The notes under the pieces were generated by a model that had not been told where the DNA came from, made no database searches, and worked only from the letters and a program-made list of their open reading frames with translations. This document shows, piece by piece, positions 751 to 55,057 of a stretch of 64,000 nt of DNA. Both the position numbers and the translations under genes were made by a program. Every line of letters starts with the position of its first letter. The first letter of the stretch is position 1. The stretch is from contig CM035352.1 of NCBI GenBank assembly GCA_020137815.1, forward strand, positions 1 to 64,000, given 5' to 3'. Source of the stretch: Hormiphora californensis (Eukaryota; Animalia; Ctenophora).

Positions 751-895
751 CGCCTGGCCGTTTAGCTCTGGCAGTGAAGTTTGAGAGCGGACACCATCTC
801 TCACATCTCGTGATCGTCCATTATGTGCGATCGATTCTCAATACTCATACCACGACTACTAGAATTTGATATTTGTTGTTGAGTCTCTTATGAAC

Positions 896-936
896 TTTCA
901 AACTTTTCAACACTACTTTAAACAAATTAATTTGAG
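896..936 (+). other. Spliced-leader-like 41-mer at the LINE 5' end
   Basis: TTTCAAACTTTTCAACACTACTTTAAACAAATTAATTTGAG; exact reverse-complement copy at 33799-33839; matches my recollection of the ctenophore (Pleurobrachia) SL exon; followed by TTTCAG, not a GT donor. Confidence 0.75.
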
Positions 937-973
937 TTTCAGCCAAATGTCTGCCTGACCACCCCGGAAGACG

Positions 974-2191
974 ATGCCGGATATGTCAAACGAGATACTA
1001 GCGAAACAGAAAGCAGTGCTGTCGGAGCTATGTGATGACCCCGATTGTAGTGACGAGGTGAAACGGATCGTGAAGGCCTACAGTCCTACAGCTAAAAGGT
1101 ACCAGACCAATCTCAAGGCACTTGATCGTTTTACGGACATTGTTTTGGAGGAGGCTGCGCTTTTCTTTGGGGGGAAACCCCGTACTGATGACGGAAAGGA
1201 AAAACGGTACCGGGACAAAGCCAGTCTCATCGACTGGTTGATAATGGCTATTGAAAGTCTATTTCCGCAATTTTGTGAGGCATGCGAGAAAGACTATGTG
1301 ATCAAAAGGTGTGAGAAATCCAGGTTCAATTGTGGAAGTTGTGGGGCAGGGAGCCATAATTGCACCCTAATCCAGGAGCAACCGCTGTGCTCTATTCCAG
1401 GTTTCAAGTGGATTTGTCACATGTGTTGCAAGAAACACACACTGGAAAAGTTTGTGGGTTCCAGTGGGGAGTTTGCAAGCCCTCCCAAGAGTGCAGCAAG
1501 TGAGGCTTCGGATGACGCCCTAAGGAGGAGGTTTAGCTTCATGTCAGAGGTTGGAGACACCAAACCAGAACACCAGCAGAAGCCACCCGGTCAGAAATTC
1601 AACAGTGTGGAGGAGGCTGATGAGGGCAAGAAGAAAGACGATGATAAGCCGATCCCGGTGTGCCAACACTACCTACAAAATCGGTGCAAGTACGGCCGCT
1701 ACGGAACGAAGAAGATCGACGGAGTTTCATGCCAGAAGTCACATCCCCCAATGTGCCGGAGATACTGCGCCCATGGGTCCATGAAGAAATACGGCTGTCA
1801 GCTGGGGAAAGAGTGTCGATACTACCATCCACCTATCTGCCGCTCTTCCCAGTTCAGGCACGAATGCCTAAAGAAGGACTGTCGTTTTCAGCATCTCAAG
1901 AACACCCGACGAGTTGCAGTGGACGAGACTCTAAATCTCAATCGGAACGGAACCCTGTCTTTTGGTGTCGGAAGGGCTGAGACGAACTATGCTAGGGATA
2001 CGGAGATACCACGATCCCAAAATCCGAGTGGTAGCTCCAATGACACCCGTGAACCACCCCGATTTGATGAGGATTCTTTTTTAGAGAGACTGTTCGGGAG
2101 AATGGAAGTGAGAATGAAACAGATGCTAGACAAGAGGTTCGAGAGTATAGAGACGATACGCCCGACTCTAAGTCAATGGAGAGATCGTTAG
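974..2191 (+). CDS. LINE ORF1: PHD-like finger plus three CCCH-type zinc fingers
   Basis: CEAC...CGSC...HNC...WICHMC (PHD-like); CQHYLQNRC...CQKSHP, CRRYC...C...CRYYHP, CRSS...C....CRFQH. Confidence 0.85.
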   Translation: MPDMSNEILAKQKAVLSELCDDPDCSDEVKRIVKAYSPTAKRYQTNLKALDRFTDIVLEEAALFFGGKPRTDDGKEKRYRDKASLIDWLIMAIESLFPQFCEACEKDYVIKRCEKSRFNCGSCGAGSHNCTLIQEQPLCSIPGFKWICHMCCKKHTLEKFVGSSGEFASPPKSAASEASDDALRRRFSFMSEVGDTKPEHQQKPPGQKFNSVEEADEGKKKDDDKPIPVCQHYLQNRCKYGRYGTKKIDGVSCQKSHPPMCRRYCAHGSMKKYGCQLGKECRYYHPPICRSSQFRHECLKKDCRFQHLKNTRRVAVDETLNLNRNGTLSFGVGRAETNYARDTEIPRSQNPSGSSNDTREPPRFDEDSFLERLFGRMEVRMKQMLDKRFESIETIRPTLSQWRDR

Positions 2192-5151
2192 GGACTGTTT
2201 CTACTACGAGTAACATATTACTGCTTAATGCAAGGAGTCTAAGTCCGGCAGGTGATACGTGCTGGAAACTCGGTCTTATTAGAGATTATATAAGAAATGA
2301 GAAAACTCCTACAGTAGCCATTGCAGTTACTGAAACCTGGTTTAAAGGGTATCACTCAGATGCCCAGGTTGAGATACCGGGATATAATGTTTTTAGGAGT
2401 GACAGAGTGAGTAGAGTCGGTGGAGGCTGTGCTCTGTATGTTCACTCGTCGCTGGCTGTTTCTGATAGTACATGTTTTGCTAGTGCGTTTAACAATATGA
2501 AAGCTGTCTATGTTGGCCAGATTAACACCATATTTGCTGCTGTTTATCGTTCAGAGTCGAGTGTTTTGGACTTTCAGAGACTAATGAACACCTTACAGAC
2601 ATTTATCGATAAGTACAGTGAGAGCGGGTTACCAGAAGTGGTATTATCGGGTGATTTTAATCTCCCACTCTTTAATTGGGTTGACGGGTCATCAGTCCCA
2701 GTTGATCAGCCTAACTACAATGTTGTATCGGACTTTATGGACACTAATTTTCTATCCCAGGTTGTAGAGGGCCCTACCAGGGGCAACAATACGTTAGATC
2801 TCGTGTTCACCAACAGACCGGACTACTTCAGCGATATTTCCATTACAGATGAGGGTGTATCAGATCATCTGTGGGTATCATGTCACCTTACCTTCAACCC
2901 TCTCGGTCCAGTAAGTCTATTTCTGCCTGGCAAACTGGAAGGTTATCGGCAACTGGATCTCCATTCAGCGGACTTTGTGAGTATTGATGCTGACCTTGCA
3001 GCTACTGATTGGGACAAACTGCTTGTTGAGTGTGAGGATCTGGGTGATGAGGATGGCTCATTGTTTGTGGAAGCTGTTCGAGATAGAGTGTTCAAGGTGG
3101 TTAAGTCACATTGCCGAGTGAAGAAAATGCGAAAGGACTTTGTAGACAAGGAGCTCAGGCATTTGACTAGCAGGAGGCGTAAACTTGATAAACGTAAGAA
3201 CGATTCAGTAAAGTGGAAGTCGGTGATGGATTGTTTAATTGGGAAAATCAAATCCCATCTGATATCAAGGGACAAGAAAGTGGAGAGGAAGGCTGTGGGT
3301 GCTATCAAGGTGAACCCCAAGTACTTTTATACTCACGTTAAAAAGAACTCCAAGGTTAAATCATCAGTTGCCCCCCTTGAGCGTGCGGATGGTTCCTTAA
3401 CTGTGGACCCCCTGGAGAAGGCTAACCTACTACAACACCAGTTTGCTAGCGTCTTCAGCAATCCGGCGGCTATTGATCCCTCTGTGGCAGCGGGTAACAT
3501 TGAGGACCTTGGTGAGATCCTGACGACCATGGATTTTTCACGGAATTGTATCCAGAGTGCACTAGAGGAGCTTAAACCCTTTTCGGCCTCACCTCCGGGC
3601 TGCATTCCTTCGTGCATTCTGAAACGATGTAACAGCAGCTTGTCTTATCCTATATGGATGTTATGGAACAAGTCATTTGAAGATGGGGCTGTTCCAAATT
3701 GTTTAAAGCAGCAGTTCATAACACCGATCTTTAAGAAAGGGTCGAAGTCTACGACGGCAAATTATCGCCCTGTGTCGATCACCAGTCACCTATCGAAGGT
3801 GTTTGAGCGGCTAGTCAGAAAGAGAATAGCTGATTATTTGGATGAGATGCAGTTACAGAGTGAAACGCAACACGGTTTTCGAAAGGGACGTAGTACTATG
3901 TCCCAACTGTTATCTCATGTTGACTACATCCTAACTGAACTCTGTGGAGATAGAGAAGTTGATGTTCTCTATTTAGACTTTTCTAAAGCTTTTGATTCGG
4001 TGGATATCAATGTGTTGCTAGCTAAGTTGAAAAGGTACGGGATTGGGGGAAAACTTCATCAGTGGATCAGTGCGTGGATCCTGGGCAGGCAGCAGTGTGT
4101 GATGGTGGATGGGGTTAGGTCACCATGGGTGGAGGTGCTCAGCGGGGTGGCGCAGGGTAGTGTCCTGGGCCCTCTCCTCTTCCTTATTTATATACTGGAC
4201 CTGGAATCTGTACTGGATGGTAGTATGTGTCTCACCTTTGCGGATGATACCAAGTTAATGAAAGCCATAACAGATATTGTTGATCAGGAGGGTTTACAAT
4301 CGGATCTTTTGAAGGTTACAGAATGGGCTAAGATAAACAATATGGTGCTACATGACCAGAAATTTCAACTCCTGAGTTACAGACTGAACAAGTCGGCAAT
4401 CTACAAGGAATTCCCTTTTTCAGTTGACATATGTTCGTATACCACAAAATCTGGAGTACAACTGTTTCCTGAAGCTGATGTCCGTGACTTGGGTGTCCAG
4501 ATGTCCTCGGATGGTTCTTGGTCTAAGCACATTGCCACCATTGTGAGAAGAGCCTCTCTCCTATCTGGGTGGATTTTCAGTGTTTTTCGAGATCGTTCAC
4601 CAGAGGTAATGTTGCAACTCTTCAAATCACTGGTCAGACCAATTTTGGAGTATTGTTGTCTGGTCTGGGATCCGTCAAAGTCTGGGGACATCAAGTCAAT
4701 TGAGAACGTCCAACGGTGTTTTACTAGAAGACTTGATGGAATGCAGAATCTCGACTATTGGGAGAGATTAAAAGTTCTCAACCTGATGTCTCTTCAACGT
4801 AGGAGACAACGTTACATGTTGATACATGTGTGGAAGACGATCCATGGGTTTGTTCCGAATTCTGCAAATCTTGTGTTCCAACACAGTGCAAGGCTGGGTA
4901 TGAGGTTAGTCCCACCAGTGTTTCCTTATCGGGCTGAGACCTGGAGAGCGAATCAGTACCATTCTTCCTTCGGACCGAGAGCTGCTCACCTGTGGAACAG
5001 GTTGCCAGCAGTCGTTAACTCTTGCGGAAGCTTAGGTCAATTCAAATCATCCCTGGGCAATTACTTGACAGGCTTTTATGACCGTCCCCCTGTCAGAGGC
5101 TATCCATCACTTCCCAATGATATTTCCCCTCAATGTGCTGTAAATGTCTGA
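2176..5151 (+). CDS. LINE ORF2: AP endonuclease plus reverse transcriptase
   Basis: LLNARSL, VTETW, SGDFN, LDLVFTN, SDH (APE); NYRPVSIT, QHGFRKGRST, YLDFSKAFD, QGSVLGPLLF, FADD (RT); overlaps ORF1 by 16 nt. Confidence 0.97.
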   Translation: MERSLGTVSTTSNILLLNARSLSPAGDTCWKLGLIRDYIRNEKTPTVAIAVTETWFKGYHSDAQVEIPGYNVFRSDRVSRVGGGCALYVHSSLAVSDSTCFASAFNNMKAVYVGQINTIFAAVYRSESSVLDFQRLMNTLQTFIDKYSESGLPEVVLSGDFNLPLFNWVDGSSVPVDQPNYNVVSDFMDTNFLSQVVEGPTRGNNTLDLVFTNRPDYFSDISITDEGVSDHLWVSCHLTFNPLGPVSLFLPGKLEGYRQLDLHSADFVSIDADLAATDWDKLLVECEDLGDEDGSLFVEAVRDRVFKVVKSHCRVKKMRKDFVDKELRHLTSRRRKLDKRKNDSVKWKSVMDCLIGKIKSHLISRDKKVERKAVGAIKVNPKYFYTHVKKNSKVKSSVAPLERADGSLTVDPLEKANLLQHQFASVFSNPAAIDPSVAAGNIEDLGEILTTMDFSRNCIQSALEELKPFSASPPGCIPSCILKRCNSSLSYPIWMLWNKSFEDGAVPNCLKQQFITPIFKKGSKSTTANYRPVSITSHLSKVFERLVRKRIADYLDEMQLQSETQHGFRKGRSTMSQLLSHVDYILTELCGDREVDVLYLDFSKAFDSVDINVLLAKLKRYGIGGKLHQWISAWILGRQQCVMVDGVRSPWVEVLSGVAQGSVLGPLLFLIYILDLESVLDGSMCLTFADDTKLMKAITDIVDQEGLQSDLLKVTEWAKINNMVLHDQKFQLLSYRLNKSAIYKEFPFSVDICSYTTKSGVQLFPEADVRDLGVQMSSDGSWSKHIATIVRRASLLSGWIFSVFRDRSPEVMLQLFKSLVRPILEYCCLVWDPSKSGDIKSIENVQRCFTRRLDGMQNLDYWERLKVLNLMSLQRRRQRYMLIHVWKTIHGFVPNSANLVFQHSARLGMRLVPPVFPYRAETWRANQYHSSFGPRAAHLWNRLPAVVNSCGSLGQFKSSLGNYLTGFYDRPPVRGYPSLPNDISPQCAVNV

Positions 5152-5310
5152 GAGTGGCTGAGAGGTGATACGTGTTTAATTTATTTAGGTGGACCCACTA
5201 AGGGAAGGCCTGTTGTGTACACTAAAACTTTTATTGTAAACTTGTAAACTTGTAAACTTGTAATGAAATTGTGATATTTGACAGAAAAAAAAGATTGATA
5301 TAAACTAACT

Positions 5311-7461
5311 TCACTTGAGCCTAATATTTCTCTCCTTAGTAGCGAAATGATCTACAAGGGATTCTGTACTCAAGCGATCTGTTCTGTCAGCCTCGATCTC
5401 CAATAGAGCAAGATGGCAGAGCCGCTTATCCAACATATTGGTGCGGAGCCGAGATTTGATACGTTTCAATGCAGAGAATGACCTCTCACACGAGACACTG
5501 GTTAGTGGAATTGTCAATATCAATTTGATGAGTTTCGTCAGTTCTTTTAACTCAAAGCTGTCCATTTTCAACTGATAAATCTTTTGTATGATTTTAACTG
5601 GATCTTCCCCCAGCTCTGGAGAATCCCGGAAATACGTCAAGTCGGATAACAATCTACCCTCGTCAAAAAGATGCCCGTACGGTGAGGACATAAGGGCATC
5701 AACCAGCGGCTCGATGTTGGCCTTTCTGTCGAGCAGGTTCAAGAATGTCAGCTCACTGAGACTCTCAAATCGGTTTGACAGTTCTTCAGTCATTCCCCAC
5801 ACAACATTTGCCAACTCTTCCCGAGCATCGAAAGAGATATCGTCGGAAGATATCCCCTGAATCATCTCCTGGTACTTTTCGTCGGTGTCTAATGCAGCTA
5901 ACTTCTCCATTTGGGTCTCAACCAGTTTGTTAGCTGACGTTATGTTTAGCCCCACACTCTGTAATTGTGTGTATAGGACATCTGTGATCTGGAAACAGCG
6001 GTGCAAGAGCCTCTCCAGAAATTTGAAGTCTGCTGACTCCATGTGCCCGATGAATAGGGTCGCGGATGCCTGTGCCGATACATCCCAATTGCCATCCCTA
6101 ATTTCCCTGAAACAGCTGAGGTAAGCTTCCCGATTCTGGAGAAGGTGAGCCAGCTGTCTGGACTTGTGGTTCCACCGGGTGTTGGAGACTGCGGGTGGCC
6201 TGGAGCAAGTCAGCGCTGCAGTTCTTTTGAAACTAGTCCTGAAAAACTTGGAAATCTCATCCAACACTATCAGCAGTCTTGAACAATCAACTGACTGAAT
6301 GGACGCTTCCATTGCCAGGTTCAACCGATGTGAGAGGCAGTGTGTAAAAACTGCCATAGGACACTTGTCCCGGATTAGCTTCTGTACGCCATTTAACCAG
6401 CCGGACATGACACTAGCACCATCATAACTTTGACCTACCACATTAGCAATGTTGTATTCTGTCAGAAGATCAAGAATTTTCTGACTCAGCCCAGCAGCAC
6501 CCCCAGACTCTGAGATGTTGTAGAATCCTATGAAACTCTCCTTTAGCTCGCTTCCAGAAACATGTCGGAGAACTAACGAAAGCTGATTGTGTCCAGTTAA
6601 GTCAGTTGTTTCGTCTGCCAGAATAGAAAAGAAGGGAGCTTCCAAAACTCCAGATTTTATTTCTGCTAGGACAGCTTCTGCAGTTATCTTAATGAGCTCG
6701 TTCTGGATATCCCCAGAGGTTCCCTTAAACCCCATTGACCCAGAGACCTTAATCCTATCCTGGAGGGGACGCTCCGCCTCCATCAGCCTGAGAGTATCTC
6801 TGAAGCACCCCTGATTCACTGAATCATCCGTCTCTGTGTTTCCCCGAAATGCCAGCCCGTGTATTCCCAAATACTTCACAACTTTAAACAGTCGTGTGAC
6901 ATAGTCCCTATTTATCCTCACCTGCTCCTCGGACTCTTTCAACCCTACACTTGTAGAACCCACAATCGTTGTTGATTTTGAGGGGTCGATACGTTCCAAG
7001 AACAACTTCTCCATTCTGGAACAGTCCAAGTGAGTGTTGGACGATTCATGCCTTTTTAGGCCCATAGATATCCTCGAAAATTCCTTAAACCCGGAAGACG
7101 TCCAGGGAGGACACGTGCCCATCAACAGACAGGGCCAGCAATATAGGCCACCGTTGTGTGCGGTCAGCCAGCTCTTCTGGTCCAGGATGTTGTCTGAAAA
7201 AGAAAAGACAAATATTATGTCATTTAGGGAAATGAAAGGGTTAGGGACTCGTTGGTTTTTCATTTTTGTGTGGTCGAGAGTGAAGCAATGAATATAATTA
7301 TTGGATATCGACTAAGAAAATGTATTCTTACGTTTAGGGTCTGTTTTTGAATGTATGAGGGTTTTCTTATTGCCACTGAGAGTTTTGTATTCGTAACTAA
7401 ATGCTGGCTTGGGGCATCCAGCCGTCACAATGGCTCTTTTTTCAGGTATTTTGCGGTGCAT
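5311..7461 (-). CDS. hAT transposase (ZMYM1-like/DUF4371 plus hATC dimerisation domain), two exons 7461-7332 and 7193-5311
   Basis: LAFRG, LADETTD, SYDGASVMSG, HCLSHRLNL, TRW, SCERSFS motifs; GTAAGA...TTTTCAG intron 7331-7194 joins in frame (MHRKIPEKRAIVTAGCPKP...DPKH|NILDQKSWL). Confidence 0.9.
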
Positions 7462-33656: not shown

Positions 33657-33944
33657 ATAGACAGTTGGGTGATCGGATAACTGTTTATTAGCCTCATGTT
33701 TGATATTCAGAGTTTTTGTTATTCTCTCTGTGGCTGAACAAATGAATCAGACGGGTATAATGACGCTACCAGTTTCGAGGATCTACCTCTTCATCGGGCT
33801 CAAATTAATTTGTTTAAAGTAGTGTTGAAAAGTTTGAAACTCTTTTGAGCCCGATGAAGAGGTAGATCCTCGAAACTGGTAGCGTCATTATACCCGTCTG
33901 ATTCATTTGTTCAGCCACAGAGAGAATAACAAAAACTCTGAATA
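33657..33944 (-). mobile_element. Short snap-back retroposon (Penelope-like, non-autonomous) with SL-like loop
   Basis: 11-bp TSD CCTGTTATGTA (33646-33656 / 33945-33955); perfect 101-bp arms 33704-33804 / 33844-33944; SL-like sequence at 33799-33843; 47-nt unpaired tail. Confidence 0.85.
33846..33887 (+). ncRNA. Hammerhead-ribozyme-like motif (PLE minimal type, U4C core variant); mirrored on the minus strand in the left arm
   Basis: CCGATGA-A-GAGG(TAGAT)CCTC-GAAA-C-TG-GTA-GCGTCA. Confidence 0.5.
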
Positions 33945-40643: not shown

Positions 40644-41564
40644 TCACCATGTCCTGTAATATAGGAGGCCAGGCAAGAACTCAGAAAATAGACGGCTCAT
40701 ATCATGTACAGTAGTGACTCCTTTGCTCTTCAGCCAGGCGTATTCAGTAATATCCAGTTGTAAGGTCCTCTCAGAGCGATTTCCTCCAACCCGCAAACGT
40801 GTATGATTCTTTAGGTGGGTCCAGAGTCCCTCAATGGCGTTGGTGTGCGCTCCAGTAGTAGGGCACACAAAGTTTGTGGAATGGTTCACGGTATGATGTG
40901 TGTATCCGTGCTGGTTGAGGTTTCTGTATGCGGCCCAGCAGTCAGAGATGATTATTGAACCAGGACGGATGTAGCTTTTGATGATGGGAAGTAGGGTTGC
41001 CTCGTCTCTCTTGTTTCCTGGGCAGATCACGAAAAATGCTTCTCCTGTCTCTTGGTCGACACCTCCAAAGACCCAGTGTCCATCCACAATTCGGCCTCGG
41101 CTGTACTTTTGGTGTCCATGCTTGCTCTCGTCAATTTGAACAATCTTCCCAGGTCCTCCGATCATCCCAGCAGTAGAGGTCATCTCATCGTGCATCTTCT
41201 CCCGTATCTTGCAGTAGAATCTGTAGACGGTGCCCTCATCTAGAGAAAGTATGATGCCAGTGGCAGCAGCTGATGTTCTCAGGGTGTACTGGTTCAGGAG
41301 GCCGATAAACTTGCTGAAGGGCATCGGACTTCGTTCGAGGATGCTGTGTTTCCGTACAGACACAGTAAGTCCACAAGTGGTGCACTTCCAACTGAAGCCA
41401 TCACTGTATATGGTGGTAGAACAGGGTGTTATCCTCATCAGGACCAGGCAGTTGTTGCATTGGCAGTGGGTAGGAAGGATCTTCTTTCTCAGGAGGTAGT
41501 CAAAGCAGTCGTACTCCGAGGAGAGGACACCGGCGAGAACAAGGTCAGAGTAAGATACATGCAT
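40644..41564 (-). CDS. Merlin / IS1595 (ISXO2-like) DDE transposase, 306 aa from the first ATG
   Basis: Zn ribbon CNNC...WKCTTC; IGGPGKIVQIDESK, WVFGG, LLPII...PGSIIISDCWAAY, HHTVNHS..FV.P.TGAHTNAIEGLW. Confidence 0.95.
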   Translation of the reverse strand: MHVSYSDLVLAGVLSSEYDCFDYLLRKKILPTHCQCNNCLVLMRITPCSTTIYSDGFSWKCTTCGLTVSVRKHSILERSPMPFSKFIGLLNQYTLRTSAAATGIILSLDEGTVYRFYCKIREKMHDEMTSTAGMIGGPGKIVQIDESKHGHQKYSRGRIVDGHWVFGGVDQETGEAFFVICPGNKRDEATLLPIIKSYIRPGSIIISDCWAAYRNLNQHGYTHHTVNHSTNFVCPTTGAHTNAIEGLWTHLKNHTRLRVGGNRSERTLQLDITEYAWLKSKGVTTVHDMSRLFSEFLPGLLYYRTW

Positions 41565-41856
41565 GTCCTTGAGGGACACCGAAGCGCTAAATGGAGACAG
41601 GGTCAAATAAAGAGTGAATGCCCTAGGAAGAGTCAGATAGTAACTCAGCTCTGGTAAAAACACATAAAACAAAACAACTAAACTAGCTAAAAAACATACC
41701 CACTAACTAGCCAACTTAATACATAGAGGGAGGGAGAACAGACGAGTACTAGGCGAATAGGTGAAAACAGACAGAAAGAGATAGCCTAGTCCACGTGTGT
41801 TATTATATGGTGCCGACATACTGAAGTTACCCAAGTTACCCCTCACAATAGTTAAC

Positions 41857-41964
41857 AGACAGTTGGGTGATCGGATAACTGTTTATTAGCCTCATGTTTG
41901 ATAGTCAGAGTTTTTGTTATTCTCTCTGTGGCTGCCACAGAGAGAATAACAAAAACTCTGACTA
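41857..41964 (-). mobile_element. Second, 5'-truncated copy of the snap-back retroposon
   Basis: 12-bp TSD ACAATAGTTAAC (41845-41856 / 41965-41976); 31-bp arms 41902-41932 / 41934-41964; same tail as the 33657 copy. Confidence 0.88.
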
Positions 41965-42354
41965 ACAATAGTTAACTTATAATATGGATAATTAAAGACG
42001 GAAAGAAAAATATAGCACAGATTGGCAGCAAAATCGCCCAATATCTACCCTAACGAAGCACTTGCAGCACACTACCAATCACAACACAATGGAGAACCCC
42101 CTGATTTAGAGTTTGACATATTGGCAACTGGACCAGCCAGTCAGACGAAAAGTCACGGAGGCGATCCTAATCAAATCTCTTAAACCTAGCATTAACAAAC
42201 GAGAAGAGGGAGAAAAGATCGAACAATTTATTATCTGATACAGTATCTGATTTCTGATTCCTAGTTTGCGTGTGATGTATATATTGTATAGTTCCTATTT
42301 CGTGTATTTTAGATATTAGACATGTGACCTTATTTTTAGCAGCCTGATGATGTC

Positions 42355-42508: not shown

Positions 42509-44671
42509 TGAGAGAGACAAAACCACTTTTTTTCGGGTTGTAGCAACAATATCCAATTTTTCTATCACTGCGTATTTACGGCATTCTAGTTCTGGTAGGA
42601 TATTACCAATGATTGCGTATTCGCTCTGCATTCGCTCTGCATTCGCTCTGCATTCGCTCTGCATTCGCTCTGCATTCACTCTGTATTCACTGCGTATTCA
42701 CCCTGTATTCACTGCGTAAACAGTTCTGGTAGGATATTACCAATGATTGCGTATTCGCTCTGCATTCGCTCTGCATTCGCTCTGCATTCACTCTGTATTC
42801 ACTGCGTATTCACCCTGTATTCACTGCGTAAACAGTTCTGGTAGGATATCCCCAATGATTGCGTATTCACTGCGTATTCACTCTGCATTCACTGCGTATT
42901 CACTCTGGAACCACTCTGCATTCACTCTGCATTCACTCTGCATTCGCTCTGCATTCACTCTGCATTCACTCTGCATTCGCTCTGCATTCACTCTGCATTC
43001 GCTCTGTATTCACTGCGTATTCACTCTGTATTCACTGCGTAAACACTATCGATTTAAGGATATGGAGGATGCGGGTAGTACCAAGTTATCGTGGTTAGTT
43101 ATCCGCGATTACTAGTATTGATTAGTTATCAGCATTTGATATATTCACGATTGGCGCTCCGCGATTGTTCTATGATTTTGATTATTAGTCACGGATAATA
43201 ATCACGGATAAGCGTTGATAATCAGATATATCTGATACAATCAGGTTTTAGGTGCTAATTCGCTCATTTCTCAGTGATTTTTGAAATCGTCGTATATTTA
43301 AGACAGTCGTAACTCTAGATATGACTACCAATTATAACTGAAAATGCGGCAATAAACCTAATTTTATAAAATAAATCTATTTCAATGTTAATTTAGACTC
43401 TGAATCGCTTCTTTCTAGGTATTTTTTAAATCGTCTTAAATTTAAGACAGTCATAAATCTAGATATGACTACCAATTATACCTGAAAATACAGCAGTTGA
43501 CATACGTTGGCAAAATATATATGATGAAATCATGATTTGTAGTTTAATTTGCTCTTTTCTAGGTTTTTTTTGAAAATCGTCTTAAATCTTAATACAGTCA
43601 GATGCCCGTAAGGGTCCAGTTAGAGATTTTGCGACTGACGTTAGTTACAATGAAGCAGGCCCCTGCTGACACTGCTGACACTGCCGCGCGCGCTACTTTA
43701 CATGCAATTCACATCGAAAACCCTGCTAGTCAACGAAGATTTGGCGCGCACAGGGACTCTCCCAGCTTGCGCCAGTTGCAGACTGGAGGCTGGCGCCAGA
43801 AACTGGAGCCAGCCTCCAATCTGCAACTGGAGCGTAACTGACGAACCGCAACTCAGATTTGCTTGAAATTTTTAACATGTCTTCAAGATGTCAAGGCAAC
43901 ACCGCGTACCAAGCGGCGTATTTGTAGAACGACGGGAAGACCGTCTTAAACGCAAAAGAAAACTTAAGACAGTCATAACTTTTGTTATGACTGTCCGTTT
44001 TCTCTGTCCAAGAGAGAGAGCAAGGGGTTAGGTATGCCCTCTCATTCCGGAAGAGGCTTATTACATCACCTCTCGCTCCTACACCACCACCACTAGCTCA
44101 GTCGGTGGTTCCTCAGCCTATGGTATCCCCTGTGGTGTCCCCTGTGGTGTCTCAGATGACATTTTCGCCTGTACCCCCTATGGTTGATGGATACCAGCCA
44201 GATGTCTCTGGATTTTCTACCGCCGCTCCACAATCGGCACCTAATTCTCCAAGGACTCTACTCCTGGGAACTTCCATGACGAAGTGGGTGAACGAGGACC
44301 TGGATCTGATAAATGTGTCGGTATCGGGTGCGAGGCTATGCAAGCCATTCAGAGATTGGGAGGGAAGTCTTGCAATAGACATGTTGAAAGGCTTTAGAGA
44401 GAGACAACCTGAAGTGGAAGTGAGAAAAGTTATAGTTGCGTTCGGTACGAACGACATCAGGAGGTGGGTTAAATTTGTTAGGTCTCATAGTGGTAAGAAT
44501 GATATTTATAATGCGTATGTAGACCTCGTTAGGGAAATTAGAAACATGTTTGGGAAGACAACTGAAATCGTGCTGGCCACAGTTATTCCACTTAGGCCAG
44601 ACTATGGTTGGACTGCTAGTAATGTTTTCATGTTTAATAGGATTGTAACAAAAGTATCATCAATGCTGAAG

Positions 44672-47652
44672 ATCTAGAGGAGCACGCTACGGAACTGACT
44701 AAAATCCTTATCAACGCATACAAAGAATGCACTCCACTGACCCACATCTCAGCCACCACCAAAGATCCAGTGTGGCTCACGGAGGAAGTCAAGACCGCCA
44801 GGAGGTCCATGATCTCCGCGCTGACAGCAGCTCAGAGCGGTAAAACTCCTCCCTTATGGGAAGAAGCAAAAGAAAAATCAAAAATATACAAAAAACTGAG
44901 AGACCAATCCAAACGCACAGCCTGGCAATCTTGGACAGGCGAAATGGACGCCCTCTCTGACGCTCAAAAAATTGGCCAAGTAATTAAAGATAACCCGGGC
45001 AATAACCTTAGTTGTCTGATCAAGCCAGACGGCTCCCTGACGTGCAGCCCAGCCGAGACCCTGGAACACATGCGGGACTCCCTCTTCGGAGAAGACCATA
45101 GCACACGGCCATCACTTACCCCATTGAAAAATGGATCCAAAGAAGAATGGCCCAGTGAGCATGTCTTCTCCATACCAAGAATAATCAGAGCACTTAAAGA
45201 GTTCAAACCGCTCACAGCGGCAGGACCAGATGAAATCAGACCAATCATGATGCAAAAGGTTGCTCCAGCCTTTGCTACTTACTTCCAAAAGATAGCAATT
45301 GCATCTTTCTCCCTTGGGGTCACTCCTCAGTCATGGCAAGAGGCTGAAGCAATTTACCTCCCAAAGCCAGGAAAGAGTGACTACCGACAACCAAAATCAT
45401 TCCGAACCATTACCCTAGCATCCAACCTCCAGAAGCTTATGGAGAGGCTAGTTCTATGGCACATCGAAGTGGACCAAAAAGTACACAAGAAACTCAACAA
45501 AAACCAGTTCGGATTTAGACGAGGTGCGTCCACTGACACTGCCCTCCACAAAGTCGTCCGAAAAATAGAACACACCCTCATGCACAGAGGAATTGCCATG
45601 GCAACCTTCCTCGACATAGAGGGCGCTTTCGACAACGTGGCCTTCAAAGCCATAGAGAGAGCACTACACAACAAACTAAAAGACAGTAAAACGGCCAATT
45701 GGATTACTTACATGATCTCCAATCGCCGAGTCAAAACCTCACTCTTGGGACACACCCTAGTGTTCGGCCTGACAAAAGGCTGCCCCCAAGGAGGAATCCT
45801 ATCGCCATTCCTTTGGAACCTGGTGATGGACGACCTCCTCAGCCTAAAGAAGGACAAAATTCCTGGTGATCTCCAAGGGTTCGCAGATGATCTCTGCCTT
45901 CTAGCCGCGACAATATCGCCTCCAACGAAAGGCAATGCGGCTGCAGACATCTACCCCCTCAGAGAAGCAACCCAGAAAAGCCTATCCACCATTAGCAAGT
46001 GGTGCAAATCAGTGGGACTCAAGCTCAGCGCTCTCAAATCCCACACAGTAATATTCACCCACCGCCACAACATAAAACTCAGAGAACCCATCAAGGTAAT
46101 GGGTCACGAGATCAAAGCAACCAACCACACCAAATTCCTGGGTGTCACATTGGACTCCAAACTAAATTGGTCGGAACATATTGATACCCAAATAAAGAAA
46201 TGTAAACAAGTCCTATTCCAGTGCAGGAGAGCGGTGGGCCCAACGTGGGGCTTCTCGCCAAAGACCATGCTGTGGATCTACAAATCCATCATACGGCCCA
46301 TGCTCTCCTATGGCGCGCTCGTATGGGCCAATGCCATGCTGACACAGAAAAACAAGATAAACACATCAAGAATCCAAAGACTTGCCCTCCAAGTGGTAAC
46401 TGGAGCAATGTCCAGCACACCAGGGAAGGCGCTTGACATGATTACCCACACCATGCCCATAGTAGACCACCTGAGACAATGCGCCATTAAAACAGCGTAC
46501 ACGCTCAGAGCGGCCAATCAGTGGGAAGGGAGTATAGTGTCGCAGCTACCACAACCAAAAGTATTCACATCCCACGCAAACACAGTGGATGAATGCCTAA
46601 ACCTCCTTCCAGCAGAGTGGGAACATGACCACACCATCCCTCAACTCATCCTCGACCGGGAATACTCCCTGGAGATTCCGGACGCAGAGGACTACAAAGA
46701 AGAGGGAGAGGACGATCACACAATAATAGCTTACACAGACGGTTCCAGAATTGACGGCAACGCCGGCGCGGGCCTCCTAATCCGTGAAAATGGACAAGAG
46801 GCCCACTCGGCCGCTTTCAATCTGGGTGATACCACAACAGTCCCTATGGCCGAAATGATAGCCATCCAAAACACCACCAAACACCTCCTTGGCACAGGAA
46901 CTGCCAATCAAAAAATCCTCATCAATTGCGATAGCCAAGGAACAATCAAAGCACTGGATAGCACCGTATGCAGATCCAAAACCACCCAAAACACCATTTC
47001 CAACCTGAACGCCCTTGCAGTTTTCAACACCGTTAAAATACGGTGGATCCCTGCTCACAAAGGCCACGAAGGGAATGAACTAGCAGACTCCCTCGCTAAA
47101 AAGGGAGCACAAGAGATTGAAAACATCATACGCCCTCCAATCCCGAAGAAAGCCGCCTATGCGGCCCTAAGGGAGAAGACAAAAATGACAACGGCTCCAA
47201 CGGCTCACATGAATCTTTTCTGGAACCCGAACCACGTCAAACAGCTCCAGCACCTGGACCGAAATCACTTGAGAGCGGCAACCCAGCTTCTGACTGGGCA
47301 CAACACACTTAAATACCATTTTCACAAGATGAAACTAGCAAACACTCCAACCTGCCGCCTATGCGGCATAGAAAATGAAACAGCCAAACACCTCCTCACT
47401 GACTGTCCAGCTCTCTGGAAACAGCGACAAGAGAGGTTTGATCGGCTTGGTTTAACCCTCGATGACATCAAGAATGGCTTCCCGATCACCAAGACTGTTT
47501 CATTCTTCATGGATATCCTGAAACAGTTAAACCGGGGGGAAGAGGACTAACAAATCCAAACCCTCAAACCAGGCCGGGGAAAGGAATCTCCATGGTACCA
47601 CCCCTCAATCTCACCTATGGTGGAGACGGCCTAATAGAAGAAGAAGAAGAAG
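44672..47652 (+). mobile_element. 5'-truncated RT-RNase H LINE (R1/LOA-like, I group)
   Basis: (AAG)n tail at ~47635-47652; inserted at GAAG of the host ORF1. Confidence 0.85.
44770..47550 (+). CDS. Reverse transcriptase plus RNase H plus C-terminal CCHC knuckle (APE domain missing)
   Basis: AAGPDEI, KPGKSDY, FRTITL, QFGFRRG, FLDIEGAFD, GCPQGGILSP, FADD; YTDGS, AEMIAI, CDSQ, WIPAHKGHEGNELAD; CRLC...ETAKHLLTDC. Confidence 0.95.
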   Translation: MWLTEEVKTARRSMISALTAAQSGKTPPLWEEAKEKSKIYKKLRDQSKRTAWQSWTGEMDALSDAQKIGQVIKDNPGNNLSCLIKPDGSLTCSPAETLEHMRDSLFGEDHSTRPSLTPLKNGSKEEWPSEHVFSIPRIIRALKEFKPLTAAGPDEIRPIMMQKVAPAFATYFQKIAIASFSLGVTPQSWQEAEAIYLPKPGKSDYRQPKSFRTITLASNLQKLMERLVLWHIEVDQKVHKKLNKNQFGFRRGASTDTALHKVVRKIEHTLMHRGIAMATFLDIEGAFDNVAFKAIERALHNKLKDSKTANWITYMISNRRVKTSLLGHTLVFGLTKGCPQGGILSPFLWNLVMDDLLSLKKDKIPGDLQGFADDLCLLAATISPPTKGNAAADIYPLREATQKSLSTISKWCKSVGLKLSALKSHTVIFTHRHNIKLREPIKVMGHEIKATNHTKFLGVTLDSKLNWSEHIDTQIKKCKQVLFQCRRAVGPTWGFSPKTMLWIYKSIIRPMLSYGALVWANAMLTQKNKINTSRIQRLALQVVTGAMSSTPGKALDMITHTMPIVDHLRQCAIKTAYTLRAANQWEGSIVSQLPQPKVFTSHANTVDECLNLLPAEWEHDHTIPQLILDREYSLEIPDAEDYKEEGEDDHTIIAYTDGSRIDGNAGAGLLIRENGQEAHSAAFNLGDTTTVPMAEMIAIQNTTKHLLGTGTANQKILINCDSQGTIKALDSTVCRSKTTQNTISNLNALAVFNTVKIRWIPAHKGHEGNELADSLAKKGAQEIENIIRPPIPKKAAYAALREKTKMTTAPTAHMNLFWNPNHVKQLQHLDRNHLRAATQLLTGHNTLKYHFHKMKLANTPTCRLCGIENETAKHLLTDCPALWKQRQERFDRLGLTLDDIKNGFPITKTVSFFMDILKQLNRGEED

Positions 47653-48568: not shown

Positions 48569-51253
48569 TATGAAGAGTTGATGGAGAATTATATTTATTG
48601 ATTTAATGATAACAATAATATTAATATGGGGATATTTTTGGGCTGTGTTTTACTGATTTTCATTGATCTCATCCCCTGACTCCCAAATCTAACCCTAAAC
48701 TCTAAGCCCATCCCTAAACTCCAATCGTAAACCCGAATAAATGATCAGTGTCGAACAGTACAGAAAAGCTATTGGGGGGTTTGCGGGGGGTTTGGCTGGG
48801 GGGAAAAGGATAAAAATTGACAACACCGACAATAATATTAATAAAAGACAATACAATTGTATTCATTAATGAAACGACAGACATACTTATCTACCATTTC
48901 ACCATATACATTTGTTACACAATACTAATGATAGCTCTTTTAGGATTAATGTTCAGGAGCACCCCTCCAAGTGTCAAGTTCAGGAACGAAGGACAATTTT
49001 GGTTTGATATTAACTTTCCGTATATCTGGTATGCTAATTGTGTACTATTGCTATTCCTAGTCAAAGGTATGAGTTCTAGTAAATATACATATGTATGGTA
49101 TAAAAAACTCAGGCTCGTATGCATTACTATGCTCAAAGTTAGATGCCGATATACTATACTCGTAATGTTTGTTACATCATTAGCGAAAATGCTTCTACTG
49201 AGAAGCCATCCAGATATTATTAATCCAGGGCCTGATAAAACGTTGAAATTAGTGTATTGTAATGTTAACGGTCTTATAAAGATGCACACAATAGGTGGAG
49301 ATCAGCCTGAGTTTCAGGTCTCTAAACTCAGGGATCTAAAAGCATACTTGTTTACCTACTCGCCCGATATTGTTGTTCTAAATGAAACATGGCTGAATAA
49401 ATATATTAGTGAAGGAGAGCTTATATCAGACAAATATTACTCTATATTTCAAAAGGACCGCACTGAGAAGGATATGAAAACTTTTGGTAAAAAAGGAGGA
49501 GGTGTCTTAATACTCTGTAAAAACAATATTGGTGTTGAGACGGAGATAGTTAAAACAAAAACTGATCTACCAATAGTTACTATTCTTCTAAAGCATAAAA
49601 ATACAACCCCGCTTTGTATCTCTACATTTTATAGATATGATTATTCTGGATTAGAACACTTCAAAGAGGCGGAACGTTACTATACCAATCTAGCCAAGAA
49701 GTTTAAGAATCTTACCATTATAGGGGACTTAAACCTAAGTTCGGTAGATAACTGGGACGTCCCAGTGTCAAACAATAGTACTTACGAAAGTTTTATTAAT
49801 CTATTCTCATCTCTGGGCCTAAAATCCTTAGTTAATATACCAACACATAGGGACGGAAATATTCTTGACCTACTACTTACTAACATAGATACTGCCTATA
49901 CTAATGTTTTGCTCGAAGAGAATTGTCTTGTAAAGTCGGACCACCTTACACTAAAATGCGAGATAAAGTTCAAGAAATCACGCCCTAAGTATAAGAATTG
50001 TAAGAAATTTTCCTATAGAAAAGCTGATTGGGACTCTCTAAATAAAGAGCTCTTAGGAATTGACTGGTTAGCACAGTTCAAGGATCTGTCAGCGGAGCAG
50101 TCCCTGCAAATCTTTAAGTCGAGGTTGGACATTGCACTTCGTCACAATGTGCCATTAGTCAATGTAAAAATTGGCTCACAACCACCCTGGTATGATGAAG
50201 AGCTACGCCAACTTAAGAAATCGTTTGATAACTCTAGAAAAACCTTCCTAAAAAATAAAGATAGTATTGTAGCTAAAGAGGAGTACGAACTCAAAGAACA
50301 TCAATATAGAGCACTTGCAATTGAGAAAGAAACATCCTTTCTTGAGCTCTCCTCTATTATAGATGAAGACTCACCAAATGCTAATGTATCTAAGAAATTT
50401 TTTAAACACGTTAAGTCCAAGACAAATAGTACTAGAATTCCTGAGACAGTACATTTTAATAACAATTACAGTTCTGTGAGTCATCGTAAGTGTGAAATGT
50501 TCAATGAATTTTTCTGTAATCAATTCACTGAATCTAGCACTTACCAAGAAACTGTGGATATGGATAGAGATCACACTACTGATTTTAACTTTGAGAAATT
50601 TAGATATGATGAGATCCTAAAAATTCTAAAAAAGTTGGATGTATCAAAAGCAACAGGTCCAGATAATATTGATGGTGTTGTCCTTAAGAAATGTCACAAA
50701 TCCTTAGCTTATCCACTTACTTTTATATTCAATAAATCATATACAGAGGGATGTATACCAACAGAGTGGAAAACTGCGAACGTTGTCCCAGTTCACAAGA
50801 AAGGGGATCGTTCATGCGTTGAGAATTATAGGCCTATATCCCTGACTTGCCTTGTTATGAAAGTGTTTGAGAAATTAGTAAGAGAACGCCTATACAAAGC
50901 TTGTTTAGATAAAATAACTCCCTATCAGCATGGTTTTGTACCCTTTAAGTCATGTACGTCGCAGCTGATTGAATTTAATTGCGAATTAGCGCTTAACATA
51001 AATAACCGATATCAAACAGACATAGTTTACTTTGACTTTCAGAAGGCCTTCGATAGTGTATCACATGACGTAATTATAAGAAAATTAAAAAATGAGTTCA
51101 ATTTAGAAGGTAAGATGTTGCGTTTCCTAATAAATTATTTATCTGGTAGGCAACAAAGGGTTGTGCTAGATGGGGATTTTTCAGAATGGGTAGAGGTCAG
51201 GAGTGGAGTTCCACAAGGCTCAATACTAGGGCCTTTCTTGTTTGTGTTATTTA

Positions 51254-52490
<1,237 letters not shown>

Positions 52491-55057
52491 TAAATGATAT
52501 AGTTAATGTTGTAAGAGATGATGATCTAACTAAAATTAGGCTATATGCAGATGATCTTAAAATATGGCGTGTTATAAATAGTGAAGAAGATAGTTTGCAG
52601 CCCGACATCGATAGTTTAGTGCAATGGGCTAACGATAATAAAATGATATTCCATCCCAACAAGTGTAAGCTGCTTAGATGTACATTAATCGACATCAATT
52701 AAATTATCGCTTAGACAGAAATGAAATTAAATCATGTGAAAAAGAAATTGATCTAGGAGTCTCAACTAACCACAAATTATCGCCAATATAACACCAGAAA
52801 ACTGTTGTTTCCAAAGCTTCTCAAAGATTAGGACTGGTTAAATGTCCACTTAAAAAGAAGAACCTCTACATTAGTCTAGTTAGATCTTTGTTCGAACACT
52901 GTAGCCAAATATGGCGACCAGTAAGTGATTCAAGTCTGCTTAAGTTTGAAAGTTTGCAGAAACGTGCCACAAAATGGATATTAGGTGAAACAGACACTAG
53001 TTATAATTTAGAAACGTATGTAAAGAAACTCAGGGAGATTGGCGTACTCCCAATGACTCAAAAATTTCAATATAATGATCTTAAGTTGTTCCATAAAATA
53101 TTCTATGAAACATCTCCTATAAAATTTCCATCTTTCCTACAAAAATACGATCCGGAATCACATCTCAGACGCACCACCAGACAACAAACGAAACGAGACA
53201 GAACGAACATTATATGCATTGAACAACCCAGAGTGGACCTGTTCAAAAACTGTTACTTCTACCGCTGCCACCTTGAGTGGAATTTACTGCCTCAAGAACT
53301 GAGAAATACAACCGAACACAATTTATTTTCCTCCAAACTGAAAGACCATCTCTGGAACGCCTTACATGACACAACTTAATTCGCCTCTGTGGTGGGGGTC
53401 CCTTTCTCTTCCTTTATTTCTGCGGTATCTCTCCCACCTCCACACAGCTCATTCTTTACATTGTACTCAAATATGAGGTTTGGAGTGGTGTTGAACAGTT
53501 TGAAACAGGACAGGCGCCCCCACCACAGATATGAATTCTATCTGATATAAATCTCTACCAACAGCCGACGGTATACTAAATTTTGGATGGGGATCATGGG
53601 GGAGGGGTGGGGGACTAGGAAAAATGGGCAAGGGTAAGTAATTATTTTTATCATTAATGAGTGAATCAAAATTAACCAACTAGTCTAATGTGAATAGCCT
53701 TATAGCTATTTCTATTTTTATTTAGCTATACTATATTAGTCTGTTTGTCCGTAGTGTGCGAGAACTGTCTGTGTAATCGTAATAGTAATTTGAGGTGTAA
53801 GCGCTCCGTCTATATATTGACACTCCGTCAATAGGAGCCAACCGGGATATTGTCTTTATATATTGTATATCGATTTTTATCCTTTTTCAAATCAAATCAA
53901 ATCAAGCTTTAATACAAGGTACACCACTAGACCTACCGACTCCCAAAGTTTCATGGTGATAGCTTTAAAACTGTGTCCTCTATTAAGTACGCAAAAAAGT
54001 GGTTATTTTACGGTGGTTCGTGACGCGAAAAACGGACATTTTGTCTAAAACACGACCCTCTGTAGCGTAAAAACCGTAACTCCGATTTGCATGAAATTTT
54101 GAACGTGGGCTCTAGGTGTCAAGGCAACACAAACTACCAAGCGGCAAGTTCGTAGGACAACGGGAAGGTTGTCTAAAACAAATTTGAAATTGCCGATTTC
54201 AGACAATAAGTATAGTAGCGCTGTCAAAATTTTCAAAAATTTTCAAAAAATTCAAAAATTTTTTTTTTCGCAATTTCGATTTTCCATTCAATGGAAGCAA
54301 GAATGCTTGGAAAATGGACATTTTTTCCCTGCCCGGGTGAATGCCGAAGGCATTCACCCGGATGCCTTTTTACTTTGTAAAAAGGCATAGCAGGGTTAGA
54401 ATTCGAAAACGACATTTTGGTATACTAACTAATCGGTAGAGGGACCATTTTGGTCACACTTTTGTTGCGAGGGCAACGGTGTAGCAACTAAAGCCGCGCA
54501 CACAGTTACGAGCTGCTCCTTCATAAACCACTTCATTGGCACGTTTTCAGGAAATGTGTGGCGCACAATGTGGCGGCGTGGCGCGCAATTTAGTGCTACT
54601 AAAACACAAGGATTTGCTCTATACTGTTTGTGTGATATAGATGATCGGGATTTTGTGTCCCGCTTGCTGCTACAGCGGATCTAGTCATGATTCCTTTCTT
54701 CATAGATTCACATGGCAGGGAAATTCAGCATTATGTTAGAACATAATGCAAATAATTCTTGTTTAGGGAAATGCTGCGACACTTTTCCAAAATTCTCGCG
54801 AAGAGCGAAATTTTGAAAAAATCAGGTTGTTTCAAAGTTTTTTGAGGTAGGCTCATTGGTGGTTGGTCCTATCAGGTTAAAACCGGTACTACGTGAAAAT
54901 TCAGACAAAACTGTTCGACCTACTCTTCACCGATTTTTGAGATCAGCCCTACTTCCAGAGCTATGGCGATTTCAAAATATTAGGTCGAAAAGACGTTTTT
55001 TTGAGGTCACTTTTTAGATTTCTCTAGTTTCACCTGTACTTGCTCATTTTTCGTCTA

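Follow-up and report, generated by a model that had tools for sequence, protein, structure and literature searches.

Every LINE has to recover its full 5′ end although the copy it starts from has lost the upstream promoter, and to our knowledge the answers to this problem are internal promoters and self-cleaving ribozymes. R2 cuts itself out of co-transcripts with an HDV-like ribozyme, and L1Tc is described as doing the same in the part of its literature that was available to us. Spliced leaders (SLs) lie next to retroelements in parasitic flatworms, where 597 partial-SL loci were found beside LTR and LINE elements and the accessible text suggests the integration of trans-spliced element RNA (PMC12582326). 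The SL of Hormiphora californensis is 44 nt long, is carried by 56% of Iso-Seq reads and has 718 genomic copies, according to the accessible text of PMC8527503.

We analysed the first 64,000 nt of contig CM035352.1 of this ctenophore (assembly GCA_020137815.1, forward strand), a stretch called the window throughout. As read from its letters, the element near the start of the window is an intact, autonomous-type APE-RT LINE with two open ORFs, a repeat tail and a probable target-site duplication (TSD), and its features are collected in Table 1. The original prediction of an intact LINE that opens with an SL, 37 nt before the ATG of ORF1, was confirmed.

Table 1. Positions of the SL-headed LINE, its neighbour and the second SL copy in the window
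Feature	Position	Strand	Basis or remark
Candidate 5′ target-site duplication ATGAA	890..894	+	read from sequence
SL exon, nt 4–44 of the published 44-nt SL	896..936	+	match to published leader
TTTCAG, canonical 3′ splice-acceptor-like hexamer	937..942	+	CAG is the second AG in the element
Three-codon uORF upstream of ORF1	947..958	+	same place in L081
ORF1, 405 aa, Cys/His-rich	974..2191	+	open; PHD-like and CCCH-like clusters by eye
ORF2, 991 aa, APE endonuclease and RT	2176..5151	+	open; Pfam
3′ UTR and tail	5152..5262	+	tail of TTGTAAAC units at 5234-5262
Candidate 3′ target-site duplication ATGAA	5263..5267	+	after the TTGTAAAC tail
Neighbouring hAT transposase ORF, in the flank, outside the LINE	5311..7263	−	ORF and Pfam
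Minimal hammerhead-ribozyme-like core (Penelope-type)	33761..33798	−	directly behind the second SL; by eye
Second SL copy, complete, at the head of another small element	33799..33842	−	exact 44-mer

In Pfam, ORF2 matched PF14529 (Exo_endo_phos_2, E 1.5e-08) and PF00078 (RVT_1, E 2.6e-25), and no match was found for ORF1. Eight homologues of ORF1 share 28–88% identity and conserve the Cys/His clusters, and an Atlas search gave a weak lead to zf-CCCH (score 0.89). From its C-terminal motifs we take ORF2 to be CR1-like; a six-row ORF2 tree, which came with a long-branch warning, left it unplaced. The SL at the head of the LINE is without the first 3 nt of the published leader, and a single C at 895 stands between it and the 5′ TSD. 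G is absent across 896–933, so that the first AG inside the element is the terminal GAG of the SL (935–936). The ATGAA that had been proposed as a TSD is present on both sides as stated. By chance alone, 0.5–1.7% of random junction pairs give such a 5-mer match, the value varying with the slack, and the pair is a probable TSD. The LINE adjoins the hAT ORF just past the stop codon of the latter and on the opposite strand, and a search for hAT terminal repeats around the LINE found none. In sequencing run X5, a joint at window positions 1490–3505 skips 2014 nt with GT..AG ends at a depth of 26, and may be a spliced form of the LINE RNA or derive from a copy of such a form. A related oligo-dT RNA contig in run X19 has poly(A) behind 5248, inside the repeat tail, and shows only that the 3′ end of the family is present in an RNA library. 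The DNA copy ends in repeats without poly(A), whereas the X19 RNA adds poly(A) inside the tail, which suggests priming on the repeat.

The 41-mer at the head of the LINE occurs with 0 mismatches at 896–936 (+) and at 33799–33839 (−), the latter being the identical copy that had been noted 33 kb away in a different element. None of 100 shuffles held any match, and chance was rejected as its source; moreover, 33799–33842 is all 44 nt of the SL as printed in the accessible text of PMC8527503. Metagenome contigs were scanned with the 3′ 24-mer of the SL, and 121 of ~130 loci (L-numbered) were analysed. At most 20 nt precede the 24-mer in 108 of the 121, which are contigs and not capped reads. The Pfam scan covered the 80 long SL loci, fetched full length, and not the 41 short ones; 65 of the 80 encode host Pfam families, among them EF-1alpha, G-alpha and cathepsins. 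The 13 loci with >20 nt before the 24-mer comprise the elements L028, L039, L042, L064, L071 and L081, two SL genes, four mRNA-like loci and L085. Since it equals the published leader and sits at the 5′ ends of unrelated mRNA-like contigs, 896–936 is, judged by these matches, the ctenophore SL that had been suspected, which marks the window as DNA of a pleurobrachiid-type ctenophore. It was rejected as an SL RNA gene, because TTTCAG and the LINE follow it, not a GT donor, an SL intron and an Sm site. At L087/L088, which lie on one contig at a distance of 778 nt from each other, the SL is followed by GTAAG, with a hairpin over the donor region; these are predicted to be tandem SL RNA genes, the GTAAG giving them a donor site as an SL RNA gene would have. 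The base before AGTTTC at L087/L088 is C, and the cap may be the source of the initial G in the published 44-mer, in which case the copy at 33842 would record it. No SL match was found in the viral contigs set. In L006 a single SL heads one contig with two tandem G-alpha ORFs, which may be an operon or a chimera of the assembly.

The second SL copy is likely the head of a second kind of SL-headed retroelement. It lies at the centre of an inverted repeat (33704–33944), and by eye the core behind it has an extra base before helix II, a G10.1-C11.1 pair and a tiny palindromic helix III, the same hammerhead features that the accessible text of PMC4209133 lists for Penelope elements. Around this SL, Rfam gave no hammerhead; its matches there were hairpin-type miRNA models alone, none of which reached the gathering score, and no Penelope ORF was found near it among the window ORFs. 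Similar cores were seen among the loose ends behind the SL in runs X1 and X5. We take the repeat at 33704–33944 as a probable element of Penelope or retrozyme type that arose by copying of SL-spliced RNA. A shorter hairpin at 41853–41968 repeats its outer arm and has no SL, and the window is dense in fold-back repeats. A third, degenerate SL-like sequence at 53466–53506 (−) ends in TTTGAG and is followed by a one-codon ORF, with no coding element found behind it. The window holds a further LINE at 44120–47550, with a GDSL/SGNH esterase-like ORF1 and an RT and RNase H ORF2, which looks 5′-truncated, and a second APE-RT ORF at 48928–51339, the 3′ end of which is interrupted by an insertion; no SL was found upstream of either. 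An N-terminal motif of the latter ORF ends in NPGP and resembles 2A ribosome-skipping peptides. An IS1595/ISXO2-like transposase ORF at 40644–41564 (−) is presumably Merlin-type.

An SL head had been expected in more than this one copy of the LINE. In run X1, an unbranched contig of 620 nt runs from 914, inside the SL, into ORF1 at a depth of 397, and 7 other SL pieces among the matches listed have depths of 13–45. In run X8, from a second organism, a contig from 915 with 8 differing letters has a depth of 331, compared with 17–31 for 6 flanked SL pieces. The contigs of X1, X5 and X8 carry 22–25 SL letters, the bar for a bridge being 31 letters, and they break inside the SL; variable flanks were seen across families, not across copies of the window family. 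The depth of a contig is a mean and not a copy number, and the high-depth joins suggest ten or more copies, which is not a count. The flank at 760–879 is uncovered in 4 of 4 runs, which would fit a single-copy flank, a hole being no proof. In the sister family L081, the SL is followed by TTTCAG, the uORF and an ORF1 start 48% identical to that of the window over 87 aa, and its upstream flank of >300 nt is unrelated to the one in the window. L028, L039, L042 and L064 are SL-headed L2-like elements with CCHC-type ORF1s, and in the three that hold ORF2 it is 23–27% identical to the ORF2 of the window. In L042 and L064 flank follows an (ATT)n end; a TSD was sought for both, and none was readable. 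The leaders behind the SL in these four loci are 145–190 nt long and end in AG near the ATG. With L085 included, leaders span 145–215 nt with an AG close to the ATG, and two start with GT; a retained intron or a second trans-splice acceptor is possible there. No ORF support was found for L085 as a LINE. L071 and L015 share a third ORF1 type, which is LINE-like by resemblance only, and L015 fell into unnamed ctenophore clusters in the Atlas search. The SL starts at nt 3–5 in the window, L081, L071, L039 and L028, and by eye at nt 2–3 in L064 and L042, a clipping by 1–4 nt that is expected if reverse transcription stops near a cap. Across families the SL part agrees letter for letter while divergence is seen behind it, and the flanks all differ. 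Taken together, the X1 and X8 joins, L081 and the L2-like loci show, as far as contigs can be read, that SL-headed LINEs exist in ctenophores across families, and the feature is not a one-off.

The TTTCAG behind the SL had been regarded as secondary, but it is kept in the sister family and is removed exactly in a minority form. The hexamer stands directly behind the SL in the window family and in L081, with TTTTAG in L071, so that TTTYAG is kept in three families; TTTCAG differs by one letter from the last six of the SL. In X5, a 53-nt contig spans 912–970 with 6 gap letters at a depth of 430, and the next contig begins at 941 at a depth of 3674. When single 6-nt deletions were tried from 913 to 969, only that of 937–942 (three equivalent placements) ended the variant arm at 970. 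From this contig geometry we infer a minority form that is without exactly 937–942, the product expected of trans-splicing at TTTCAG. It accounts for roughly one tenth of the X5 depth (430 vs 3674–5542, the depth along the element being a sum of overlapping contigs), a run that was taken as DNA by guess. This form was not seen in X1 and X8, and the 6-nt loss is absent from the list of X5 indels; it could also be slippage between the two near-identical hexamers. TTYYAG directly behind the SL was found at 2 of the 121 loci analysed (of ~130), both of them elements, and at 0 of 111 mRNA-like loci. T-rich starts are present behind the SL at 3 of 111 mRNA-like loci vs 6 of the 8 loci labelled as elements, labels that include L085 without ORF support, L015 and L071 by resemblance only, and related pairs, and are thus not independent. 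A YAG lies within 6 nt behind the SL in 30 of the 111 host mRNA-like contigs, which include repeats of the same gene; the shuffle mean was 14, and 0 of 1000 shuffles reached 30. Host contigs often keep a YAG behind the SL, and an upstream AG can therefore win in this host. No tandem SL relic was found behind the SL in the 121 loci (of ~130), and a six-letter relic still fits TTTCAG. The hexamer is probably central to the mechanism.

Integration of SL-trans-spliced RNA is the best origin of the SL head, and the original prediction of a copy made as cDNA of SL-trans-spliced LINE RNA agrees with it. As a whole the original interpretation is partly supported; its further points, the lack of a promoter and the use of the AG of the SL itself as acceptor, stand as hypotheses. 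The full reading, in which SL-trans-spliced RNA is the template of the LINE and every cycle renews the head by trans-splicing, we judge to be just on the probable side. RNA would enter from the flank, or start weakly near the head, and would then meet the G-free, AU-rich SL relic and two close AGs. Splicing at the first AG, the GAG of the SL itself, would swap the old SL for a new one and restore the same capped RNA; splicing at the second would give the minority form, 6 nt shorter. TTTCAG would help the spliceosome to recognise the site, with joining mostly at the upstream AG, and reverse transcription to the cap would lay the SL down anew, clipped by a few bases. The recognised AG and the used AG are likewise split in Drosophila Sxl. 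TTTCAG is kept across families though splicing there would delete it for good, and it would therefore be needed and mostly retained in the replicating RNA. Splicing usually prefers the AG closest to the branch point, and mammalian competition tests ranked the acceptor contexts CAG > TAG > AAG > GAG (both in the accessible text of PMC2018619). Because GAG is the weakest acceptor, the form without TTTCAG would be expected to dominate, and its being the minority speaks against renewal. The RNA runs X22, X14, X18 and X19 gave no cover of the SL-LINE join, and a piece of X19 ending at 952 continues into unrelated sequence. The wider claim is a tentative one, and we regard it as somewhat doubtful: that ctenophore LINEs of several clades are promoter-less parasites of SL trans-splicing, the integrated SL serving as outron and acceptor for its own replacement with help from the T-rich signal behind it. 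The leaders of the L2-like loci have room for a promoter, which counts against a promoter-less renewal.

It is rather unlikely that one capture or a few from a trans-spliced RNA brought in an SL that is now fixed, with an internal promoter in the SL exon, the leader or ORF1 starting transcription at the genomic SL and trans-splicing at TTTCAG happening only now and then, as a side reaction with a very short outron. Most of the depth keeps TTTCAG, as would be expected of transcripts that have their start at the SL and undergo little splicing, and this account explains the retention equally well; the clipped SL starts fit equally, and the L2-like loci with their long leaders also agree with it. 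In Ascaris the SL exon acts as a promoter element, a point for which our literature search gave no match. For dinoflagellates, the accessible text of PMC12014239 proposes a TTTT box of the SL as a basal promoter of retrocopies. Separate captures or a very strict constraint would be needed, however, as the SL is letter-identical among elements whose ORF2 is only 23–27% identical, and the TTTYAG kept in three families is not readily explained, since splicing there deletes it for good. An improbable account is that rare masters with a longer 5′ region (promoter plus outron) make RNA that is trans-spliced like host mRNA, and that SL-headed copies are mostly their dead-end offspring. In Hydra, an SL is present on about 30% of the long reads from TEs (accessible text of PMC12220107), the 597 flatworm loci were interpreted in this way (PMC12582326, accessible text), and a rare branch could be pruned from contigs. 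Yet the LINE copy in the window is intact, and in two organisms the main path carries the SL head; no other head is joined at 937–975 among the matches listed, and masters copied from spliced RNA would lose their outron. Site-specific insertion into SL RNA genes, in the manner of NeSL, CRE or SLACS, or a jump of the reverse transcriptase to SL RNA as a new template, is hardly credible and was rejected, as had been foreseen for the insertion: such target-specific elements exist (PMC4640811, accessible text), but the endonuclease is APE and not restriction-like, the flanks (hAT side and unique DNA) are unlike the sequence upstream of L087/L088 and the GTAAG-starting sequence downstream, the TSD lies outside the SL, and the join falls exactly at the exon end with no part of the SL intron and is fixed on the LINE side.

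If the renewal cycle is true, host SL trans-splicing would be a third way to regain the 5′ end of a LINE, and trans-splicing would be linked to transposon survival in the lineages that use it. Renewal is directly testable, because the products of two acceptors separated by 6 nt can be told apart in both RNA and DNA. A part of the hundreds of dispersed Hormiphora SL copies, which the accessible text of PMC8527503 leaves unexplained, would also be accounted for; if the wider claim holds, many of the 718 would be heads of LINEs and Penelope-like elements alike. Dispersed copies of such a kind should be taken neither for SL genes nor for shared first exons. In a literature search, mostly of open-access papers without supplements, we found no description of an SL-headed ctenophore LINE or an SL-renewal cycle, and nothing on SL-headed elements was found in the accessible text of PMC7986045, PMC12460157, PMC2566580, PMC5240408 and PMC1474057. 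The supplements of PMC8527503 and PMC12582326, beyond the main text available, may annotate such loci. What we add is SL-headed ctenophore LINEs across families with a two-acceptor signature and, as a plausible extension, a renewal cycle without a promoter; SL fragments beside LINEs have been reported in flatworms and are already known in kind (PMC12582326, accessible text).

The flatworm loci resemble the ctenophore LINE in having a genomic SL beside retrotransposons that is interpreted as integration of trans-spliced RNA, and in the accessible text of PMC12582326 these partial leaders were discarded at a filter step, without element anatomy or a cycle. In contrast, the ctenophore SL is near complete and heads an intact two-ORF element, in several families, with a kept acceptor hexamer and a form without it. 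The dinoflagellate SL-relic retrogenes (DinoSL-DinoRL) share the entry of the SL into DNA by reverse transcription and the re-splicing of the integrated SL; there, the AG inside the old SL is spliced and relics are stacked on host retrogenes (PMC12014239, accessible text), whereas the ctenophore elements have a single SL and no stacked relic in the 121 loci (of ~130), as exact replacement would give. Element RNAs also use host trans-splicing in the TE transcripts of Hydra (PMC12220107) and in Cer1 of C. elegans (PMC3315495), at the RNA level only in the texts accessible to us; the full-length 8-kb RNA of Cer1 avoids the SL1 site, the opposite of what we propose for the ctenophore. NeSL, CRE and SLACS are likewise non-LTR elements next to SL exons, but they have a restriction-like endonuclease and target SL genes (PMC4640811, accessible text), neither of which is found in the window LINE. 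With the LINEs of the CR1 group (CR1 and L2 clades), the window LINE shares an APE and RT ORF2, a Cys/His-rich ORF1 and a tandem-repeat tail; those LINEs have a longer UTR of their own, whereas its 5′ end is the host SL exon and a 37-nt leader. R2 and L1Tc are functional analogues, in that a defined 5′ end is regained from read-through RNA; they do this with a self-cleaving ribozyme, whereas for the ctenophore LINE the host spliceosome would act and would add a cap as well.
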